A stretch of 55,035 bases of DNA, the filler included, from Bipalium vagum (lineage: Eukaryota): the NCBI GenBank assembly GCA_037834085.1. It is 3 parts of 3 records of this genome, joined end to end, with 100 filler letters (N's around TTAATTAATTAA, not from the genome) between each part and the next. Parts side by side here need not be neighbours in the genome. Positions count along the whole stretch, not along the records: positions 37,379 to 55,035 come from JBBMKC010056705.1; 2 more parts are not named here. One strand, written 5' to 3'. The notes under the pieces were generated by a model. That model did no database searches, was not told the DNA's origin, and saw nothing but the letters and a program-made list of their open reading frames with translations. A program made the position numbers and the translations under genes. Shown here one piece after another: positions 49,847 to 50,312 of this stretch. Numbering within the stretch: the stretch's first letter is position 1; the number at the start of each line of letters is the position of its first letter.

Positions 49847-50312
49847 ATGAATTGGTTTCCATCAATTTGTGTTGCACTACTTTGCGTGGTGGTCTATGCT
49901 GATGATCCCGACTTTGAAGGACAGGGATACGTGAAAAAGGGTAAATGTAAAACATACTTTTAGTTCGAAATGTGTTTTGTGTTTTGTTTGTTATTATTAT
50001 TATTATTATCTTTTTCGACTATTAGTCTTCCTCTTCAACAATATTTCTAGGAAAACCCTACGTCTTTCTGAACAATAAGGATATTCTTTCCGAGAAAGAC
50101 ACAACATATCAATACGGTACTGGATCAAAATGTGTAAGGTGCAAAATTAAAGGATTCTCAAAACCGAACACTATGCCAACATACAAATGCTATAAGTAAT
50201 AAAATTAGATTATGTGTATTATATATTTTTTATCATTTTATTTATTTAATTATTTAGACCAGCGAACAAAGAAATTAATGAAGTCTGGATAAGAGTTTCA
50301 AAATGTCAATAA
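49847..50312 (+). CDS. Small secreted Cys-containing protein, 97 aa, 3 exons
   Basis: Exons 49847-49940, 50051-50195 and 50258-50312 join in frame via GT-AG introns (phases 1 and 2): MNWFPSICVALLCVVVYA-DDPDFEGQGYVKKGKPYVFLNNKDILSEKDTTYQYGTGSKCVRCKIKGFSKPNTMPTYKCYKPANKEINEVWIRVSKCQ*. TATA-like AATAAAA ~35 bp upstream; AATAAA downstream. Confidence 0.8.

Follow-up and report, generated by a model that had tools for sequence, protein, structure and literature searches.

We analysed a 55,035-nt stretch of the genome of Bipalium vagum (assembly GCA_037834085.1; hereafter the window), in which a small spliced gene, the mini-gene, lies on the plus strand at 49847..50312 between frameshifted Polinton-type and transposon remnants. 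It comprises exon 1 (49847..49940, 94 nt), with the ATG, a predicted 18-aa signal peptide and the acidic start of the mature part; exon 2 (50051..50195, 145 nt), encoding a Lys-rich core with Cys59, Cys62 and Cys78; and the coding part of exon 3 (50258..50312, 55 nt), with Cys96 and a TAA stop. Two predicted GT..AG introns on the same strand separate them, intron 1 (49941..50050, 110 nt, phase 1, GC 0.24) and intron 2 (50196..50257, 62 nt, phase 2, GC 0.10), against exon GC contents of 0.44, 0.35 and 0.31. The coding length is 294 nt (97 codons plus TAA). The initial annotation of this stretch had proposed the three-exon, 97-aa model, and its coordinates and layout held.

Gene model and predicted protein

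The splice sites, start context and third-position GC content (GC3) of the mini-gene are host-like. Its donors, GTAAAT and GTAATA, and its intron-1 acceptor, ending ATATTTCTAG, are also found in candidate introns of the window's DHX9 gene; the DHX9 intron borders had a single frame-compatible candidate in six of 12 cases and several in the other six. The start context resembles that in the aldo-keto reductase gene of the window. GC3 is 34/95 (36%), compared with 71/537 (13%) in five Polinton open reading frames (ORFs; Fisher P 7e-7) and 268/827 (32%) in three host exons (P 0.56). In a crude scan, the signal-peptide score of the mini-gene was reached by one of 1,814 ATGs in the window, and that ATG led to exactly one three-exon model; none of 80 block-shuffled windows yielded any model, although the thresholds were taken from the mini-gene itself and hence are biased in its favour. 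Chance is an unlikely source of the model. Viral ORFs lie nearby, and the mini-gene might belong to the virus as an accessory gene, or AT-rich DNA might have fallen into this arrangement by chance, but its GC3, the shuffled windows and the other copies described below, which hold the frame where seen, make either very improbable.

The 5′ flank of the mini-gene (49620..49846, +) is common to many other contigs of X1, the one public run in which the mini-gene stretch was found. It contains a candidate TATA box (TATAAA, 49626..49631, +), 221 nt 5′ of the start codon, a TTGCAG at 49818-49823 that may be a splice acceptor, and an upstream ORF of four codons that begins at 49829; AATAAA poly(A) motifs stand at the end of the gene (50308 and 50348). 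The multi-copy flank also holds a 25-codon hydrophobic upstream ORF at 49670-49747, which together with the possible acceptor at 49823 may represent an extra exon, a spliced-leader site or chance. One contig of run X1 (679 nt, depth 20.5) corresponds to 49841-50519 with 0 differences, so the mini-gene DNA is not an assembly error. Both introns are present in it, which marks the run as DNA-like and without bearing on splicing. No RNA run was listed among the holders of the stretch, a blank that says nothing about expression. No paralogue of the mini-gene was found elsewhere inside the window, and Rfam gave no match across 46000-55035.

A crude hydrophobicity and -3/-1 rule predicts cleavage after Ala18, in line with the signal-like start that had been described, and would leave a mature part of 79 aa. 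The four Cys noted in the initial annotation all lie in this mature part (precursor positions 59, 62, 78 and 96; CX2C-X15-C-X17-C), where they may form disulfide bonds, to judge from the sequence. With the two junction codons excluded, the mature part has 12 Lys and 2 Arg against 9 Asp or Glu; the second junction codon encodes Lys, and the net charge is about +6. Its aromatic residues are 6 Tyr, 3 Phe and 1 Trp. Structure prediction and a fold search, both recommended earlier, were made with exon 2. AlphaFold, run on this exon as a single sequence, gave a low-confidence model (mean pLDDT 56, pTM 0.31) of three strands without a long helix, which hints at a beta-rich fold. None of the 58 Foldseek matches in the PDB (E <= 10) reached E <= 0.001, an uninformative outcome. 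We considered and dropped a conserved acidic propiece cleaved at a dibasic site, because one paralogue changes both.

Copies and divergence in run X1

Run X1 was compared with the window at 80% likeness (209 contigs), and the differences reported here come from 40 of 56 rows and 8 of 219 pieces. The run holds at least three to four further copies of the mini-gene, 10–20% diverged, which the initial annotation, while recommending a paralogue search, had missed. Other copies are represented by four contigs at 49871, in the signal region, and by three at 50109, in exon 2. One contig over 49834-49978 carries 28 differences in 145 nt without a gap, and depth sums suggest that it also extends into exon 2; another, over 50059-50156, carries 15. 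The mini-gene belongs to a small family and is not a lone gene, with several diverged copies newly found here. We attribute to chance a joint of 50231 with 50351 that one contig shows (side 32, AT-rich).

Two of the contigs listed join the 5′ flank to exon 1. Summed contig depth, which does not equal copy number, was 184-656 across 49620-49846 (338-656 over 49652-49875). The single-copy contig stood at 20.5, most of the coding exon sequence at 20-95 and 50420-50451 at 20.5. Perhaps many more copies share the 5′ flank.

Within the mini-gene body fall 29 of the 40 listed differences, among which none hits the ATG or the intron-1 GT or alters a Cys codon non-synonymously. At the codon level, two contigs together have 23 changed codons (6 silent, 17 replacements, 0 stops). 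Of 26 exon differences, 3 fall at second codon positions (binomial P 0.011), and all six replacements in the signal peptide remain apolar or small (chance 0.10). This pattern fits a fast-evolving secreted family, and also a drifting one.

The initial annotation had taken an intact gene amid decayed neighbours as a sign of selection. The remnants are real and frameshifted, but the argument for selection proved weak, given the 6 silent changes among 23 and a baseline drawn from the adjoining integrase gene. This gene has 7 frame changes over about 1440 nt and 0 stops inside the well-aligned matches, and a neutral 294-nt stretch would stay unbroken with P 0.2-0.36 (computed for 8 and 5 breaks). 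Damage made up entirely of frameshifts in AT runs may in part be repeat assembly error, which weakens the contrast between intact and decayed still further. The mini-gene could be a recently silenced or neutrally drifting duplicate in a secreted-protein family that is open by chance in a repeat-rich region, as this baseline, the near-neutral synonymous share, a private upstream ATG, the surrounding transposon debris and a breakpoint about 165 nt from the stop would allow. We consider this unlikely, since the start, the stop, four splice sites and the TATA-like and poly(A) motifs are all present and second-position changes are scarce.

Split integrase and Polinton-type remnants

The 5′ part of a Polinton/adintovirus-type zinc finger-PLA2-integrase gene, frameshifted, lies on the minus strand at 46913..48137 and ends at a left breakpoint, at residue 343 of the homologue P0137. 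The 3′ part of the same kind of gene lies on the plus strand at 50476..50690 and begins at a right breakpoint, at residue 345 of P0137. In a mapping with 29 homologues (E <= 1e-8), P0137 matched the minus strand through residue 343 (48137 to 46913) and the plus strand from residue 345 (50478 onwards); P0139, P0141, P0155 and P0157 gave the same split. That two integrase parts should meet at adjacent codons is improbable for unrelated fragments, and the block of about 3.56 kb between the breakpoints (46914..50475), which contains the integrase 5′ part, an AT-rich ORF, a foldback element and the mini-gene, is best read from the sequence as inverted. The right breakpoint lies about 165 nt past the mini-gene stop; the 679-nt contig crosses this junction, and 22 other X1 records have loose ends at 50476. 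A pogo/Tc5-like transposon remnant (46437..46913, +; left limit set by eye) is cut at the left breakpoint. Among metagenome contigs with the same PLA2-integrase fusion, L017 has a protease-like gene convergent with the integrase, and the ORF layout of L006 points to the same arrangement; the 3′ part and the right-hand remnant of the window converge likewise.

The mini-gene had been placed inside or between Polinton pieces. The flanking pieces are real, but inversion, not insertion among arrayed viral genes, accounts best for its position. The idea that one insertion had entered the element was likewise dropped, as neither a target-site duplication nor a terminal repeat was found around the GC-richer region at 48.6-51.4 kb. 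The inversion is also a caution, because later rearrangement can create the appearance of a gene inside a virus.

The flanking Polinton-type element is a remnant. Its integrase homologues carry PF00665 and PF08398, and the integrase of the window itself matched PF00665 (E 3.9e-7) with 30.7 bits, slightly below the cut-off of 32.6. The element shares an rve integrase and a PLA2-like stretch with adintoviruses and Polintons, and PLA2-like genes occur in adintoviruses according to the available text of PMC8502044. The PLA2 is fused ahead of the integrase in the element, as in its fetched homologues, and this differs from adintoviruses as described in that text. Unlike Polintons and adintoviruses, it showed no recognisable PolB, capsid or ATPase in the window; comparison with related loci that carry a packaging ATPase gave no match to it. 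Pfam gave no match in the three minus frames of 51400-54100 or the six frames of 53900-55035, and viral contigs contained no relatives of the integrase. The integrase piece at 50484-50547 reached a summed depth of 2064-11872 against 20.5 for single copy, which suggests that this Polinton family is very abundant in run X1, although AT-rich matches at 80% likeness may inflate the figure.

Further remnants accompany the integrase. An AT-rich ORF of the element (GC3 0.10) lies at 48203..48535 on the minus strand, followed at 48735..49457 by a foldback element with two arms of about 250 nt, 87% alike and 224 nt apart, whose outer ends are (TAA)n; it could be a non-autonomous DNA transposon or two head-to-head element ends. 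A GC-richer patch (0.41) at 48627-48735, by the first ORF of the element, has an inverted repeat of about 12 nt at its bounds, found by eye, and is possibly a promoter or terminal region. The 3′ part of the integrase is interrupted by a GC-richer insert (0.41) at 50691..51390 (+) with a 148-codon ORF, which gave no significant Pfam match and which may be gag-like by resemblance. Further decayed Polinton-type genes occupy 51391..53900 on the minus strand. One of them (53330-53887, -) matches, in tblastx, genes that neighbour the integrase of L002 and L004 and is putatively pX-like by its motifs, with no Pfam match; a protease-like remnant near 53300, similar to L017 in tblastx, is putatively an adenain by its motifs, likewise with no Pfam match. 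Gene order is variable among the 26 metagenome contigs with the fusion (L001-L026), and short tandem repeats lie directly upstream of the integrase in L001 and L002.

The mini-gene lies head to head with the integrase gene, 1.7 kb upstream of where the latter starts, and between the two lie the AT-rich ORF and the 720-nt foldback element. Its place 5′ of the integrase leaves mobile-element-assisted spread, as initially proposed, a possibility. Nematode Mavericks, according to 10.1101/2022.07.12.499685, carry cargo between the left terminal inverted repeat (TIR) and the integrase, in a region of 2-5 kb that is high in GC and bears introns, and just 20-23% of nematode cargo genes lie beside Maverick genes. 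The wasp and krma cargo in that text resembles the mini-gene as an intron-bearing, GC-richer gene 5′ of a Maverick/Polinton integrase. It differs in its products, which are proteases and kinases, in lying within mapped TIRs and in showing evidence of horizontal transfer, whereas the mini-gene encodes a small secreted orphan, and no TIR was located for the decayed and rearranged element beside it.

The mini-gene might then be host-derived cargo of the Polinton, or of a non-autonomous element with a foldback arm as its terminal repeat, and the family might have spread by transposition. The head-to-head position, the introns, a GC content above that of the element genes and the multi-copy 5′ flank suit such cargo, and the place matches the nematode slot. 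A terminal repeat could have been lost with the DNA missing at the left junction, and a lower abundance is compatible with the small share of nematode cargo that sits beside Maverick genes. The search for a terminal repeat around the element nevertheless found none, the sequence adjoining the mini-gene (50420-50451) is at single depth, and the foldback element stands between the mini-gene and the element ORFs. No mini-gene exon matched the 26 related integrase loci (best E 0.85), exon 2 had no match in viral or metagenome contigs, and the copies, 10-20% diverged, are far scarcer than the integrase piece. Place, introns and GC3 suit the cargo slot, but equally any neighbouring host gene, and we regard the cargo explanation as unlikely. 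Slightly less likely again is the fuller version, in which a flatworm Polinton captured a spliced host gene for a small secreted defence or toxin protein beside its left end, and amplification then gave rise to a diversifying family, an arsenal of secreted proteins, possibly with a new small disulfide fold. If true, the Maverick-type cargo model, known from nematodes, would also cover secreted proteins of a host in another phylum and offer a testable route for the expansion of defence or toxin families.

Family, proposed function and neighbouring genes

Homology queries used exon 2 (47 or 49 of the 97 residues), and Pfam was searched with exon 1 as well; a 49-residue query has low sensitivity, and distant relatives would escape it. 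The statement in the initial annotation that no family was recognisable agrees with these searches, which gave no credible match. Pfam returned nothing for exons 1 and 2, a word-index search of a 5.8-billion set (proteins of 84-2000 aa) produced no candidate, and the ESM Atlas gave no usable match. With phmmer, four matches among 1.84 billion representatives (E 5e-6 to 9e-4) were dropped as chance; all were repeat proteins with scores summed over 4-11 short stretches. None of 18 pattern matches in viral contigs was confirmed, metagenome contigs gave 0/430, and the single match in PDB sequences had E 0.83. The mini-gene stretch had no homologue outside run X1 in the searches made. A word search of the open literature, which cannot prove absence, found no description of the mini-gene family or of flatworm Polinton cargo. 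Orphan secreted mini-proteins are common in animal genomes.

Defensins and knottins carry six to eight Cys in a family pattern. The mini-protein has four and exons 1 and 2 are without Pfam match, so that by sequence it does not appear to belong to either. It resembles cationic disulfide-bearing antimicrobial peptides and toxins of invertebrates in its signal peptide, size, positive charge, even number of Cys, multiple copies and variable mature part. It differs from them in lacking a Pfam, PDB or sequence match and a conserved propiece or dibasic site, and in its Cys spacing.

Two planarian families offer closer parallels. ZPUF (Tu et al. 2015, PMC4716842) comprises several novel proteins without known homology, near 100 aa in length, that share a conserved signal peptide and have zfp-1-dependent epidermal expression. 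The mini-protein is alike in its 97 aa, the absence of known homology and a signal and 5′ flank common to its copies, a likeness by description only; epidermal expression is shown for ZPUF, and the mini-gene is known from DNA alone. PROG (10.1101/179986, available part) is a lineage-specific multi-gene family whose members have a signal peptide and are secreted from epidermal granules, and the mini-gene is likewise a multi-copy signal-peptide family without known relatives. PROG-2-5 is 16.8 kDa and, in that part of the source, the family has a coiled coil and internal repeats; the mini-protein is shorter, with four Cys and three strands in the low-confidence exon-2 model, and on the features tested it does not fall within PROG. 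The accessible part of a planarian toxin preprint (10.1101/2025.01.09.632098) reports many unannotated candidates.

On balance, with a confidence somewhat above even, we favour a host gene of a small, lineage-restricted secreted family with a role in surface defence, set between virus pieces by inversion. An inversion would have broken the neighbouring Polinton integrase and left the mini-gene between virus-like pieces. The gene would be transcribed from the TATA-like site and its transcript spliced twice; the protein would enter the secretory path and lose 18 residues, and the mature, net-positive product of 79 residues would form two disulfides. Transcription, splicing and cleavage after Ala18, like the inversion as the cause of the position, are steps that we infer. 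The small basic, aromatic-rich product may act at the body surface, in mucus or gland secretion, and serve in defence.

The defence role is a committed guess based on charge, size and family pattern, and signalling, adhesion or granule structure is about as likely. That the protein binds anionic microbial or prey surfaces is a tentative suggestion from anatomy and analogy. A product for signalling, recognition or structure, such as a pheromone-like ligand, an adhesive, or an egg-capsule or epidermal granule component, would share the gene-level reading and differ in function only. The four Cys with a CxxC pair, unlike the six to eight of defensins and knottins, would suit it, as would PROG and ZPUF, secreted epidermal products with no toxic role shown in the available texts. 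The net positive charge and many aromatics fit surface binding instead, and we rate a non-defence product as possible, though doubtful. By itself, the mini-gene offers peptide discovery a modest lead, in a group that has been poorly sampled.

Several observations weigh against the favoured account. At the junctions, the left end of the element was not found, so that the mini-gene may lie inside it, and the 3′ part of the pogo-like remnant was not found at the right junction; DNA was thus lost as well, and the rearrangement was no clean inversion. L001, L002 and L004 carry the pX-like gene on the same strand as the integrase, which is not so for the 3′ part in the window, and the variable Polinton gene order is a weak guide to polarity. 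In the divergence data, the silent share of 6/23 is close to the random expectation of 18-23%, there is no clear synonymous excess, hence strong purifying selection is not established, and the codon-position chi-square gives P 0.06. Intactness among decayed neighbours is weak evidence of selection. The upstream ATG at 49829 is missing from most of the other listed depth (A>G 319/448), possibly a sign of drift, and one paralogue alters the acidic start and the Lys-Lys pair (D19K, D22Y, K31N). The differences cover 40 of 56 rows and 8 of 219 pieces, rows shared between contigs were assigned from depth sums, and summed depth is not copy number. Finally, the long DHX9 branch (0.91) stands in a tree without free-living flatworms.

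That tree concerns the DHX9/maleless RNA helicase gene at 667-6414 (-), which has about 12 introns, several of just 44-55 nt. An exon of it was at most 65% identical to relatives among the best 120 of 1533 matches. In a tree of 44 rows, 43 of them chosen from these 120 matches to span groups, free-living flatworms being absent, the gene was sister to six neodermatan flatworms (96/98) on the branch of 0.91, and the host is probably a flatworm. The aldo-keto reductase gene, seemingly intact, lies at about 42990-45245 (-) and sets a left limit for any larger element. Elsewhere, the last exon of a KIDINS220-like gene (PF23307, E 4.5e-22) lies at 14953-16149 (-), and a decayed Ty3/Gypsy-like element at 10300-12400 (+), in which zinc knuckles and pieces of a protease and a reverse transcriptase can be made out. 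Runs of N occur at 14102-14292, 18768-18867 and 37279-37378, two of them with a central 12-nt AT filler.
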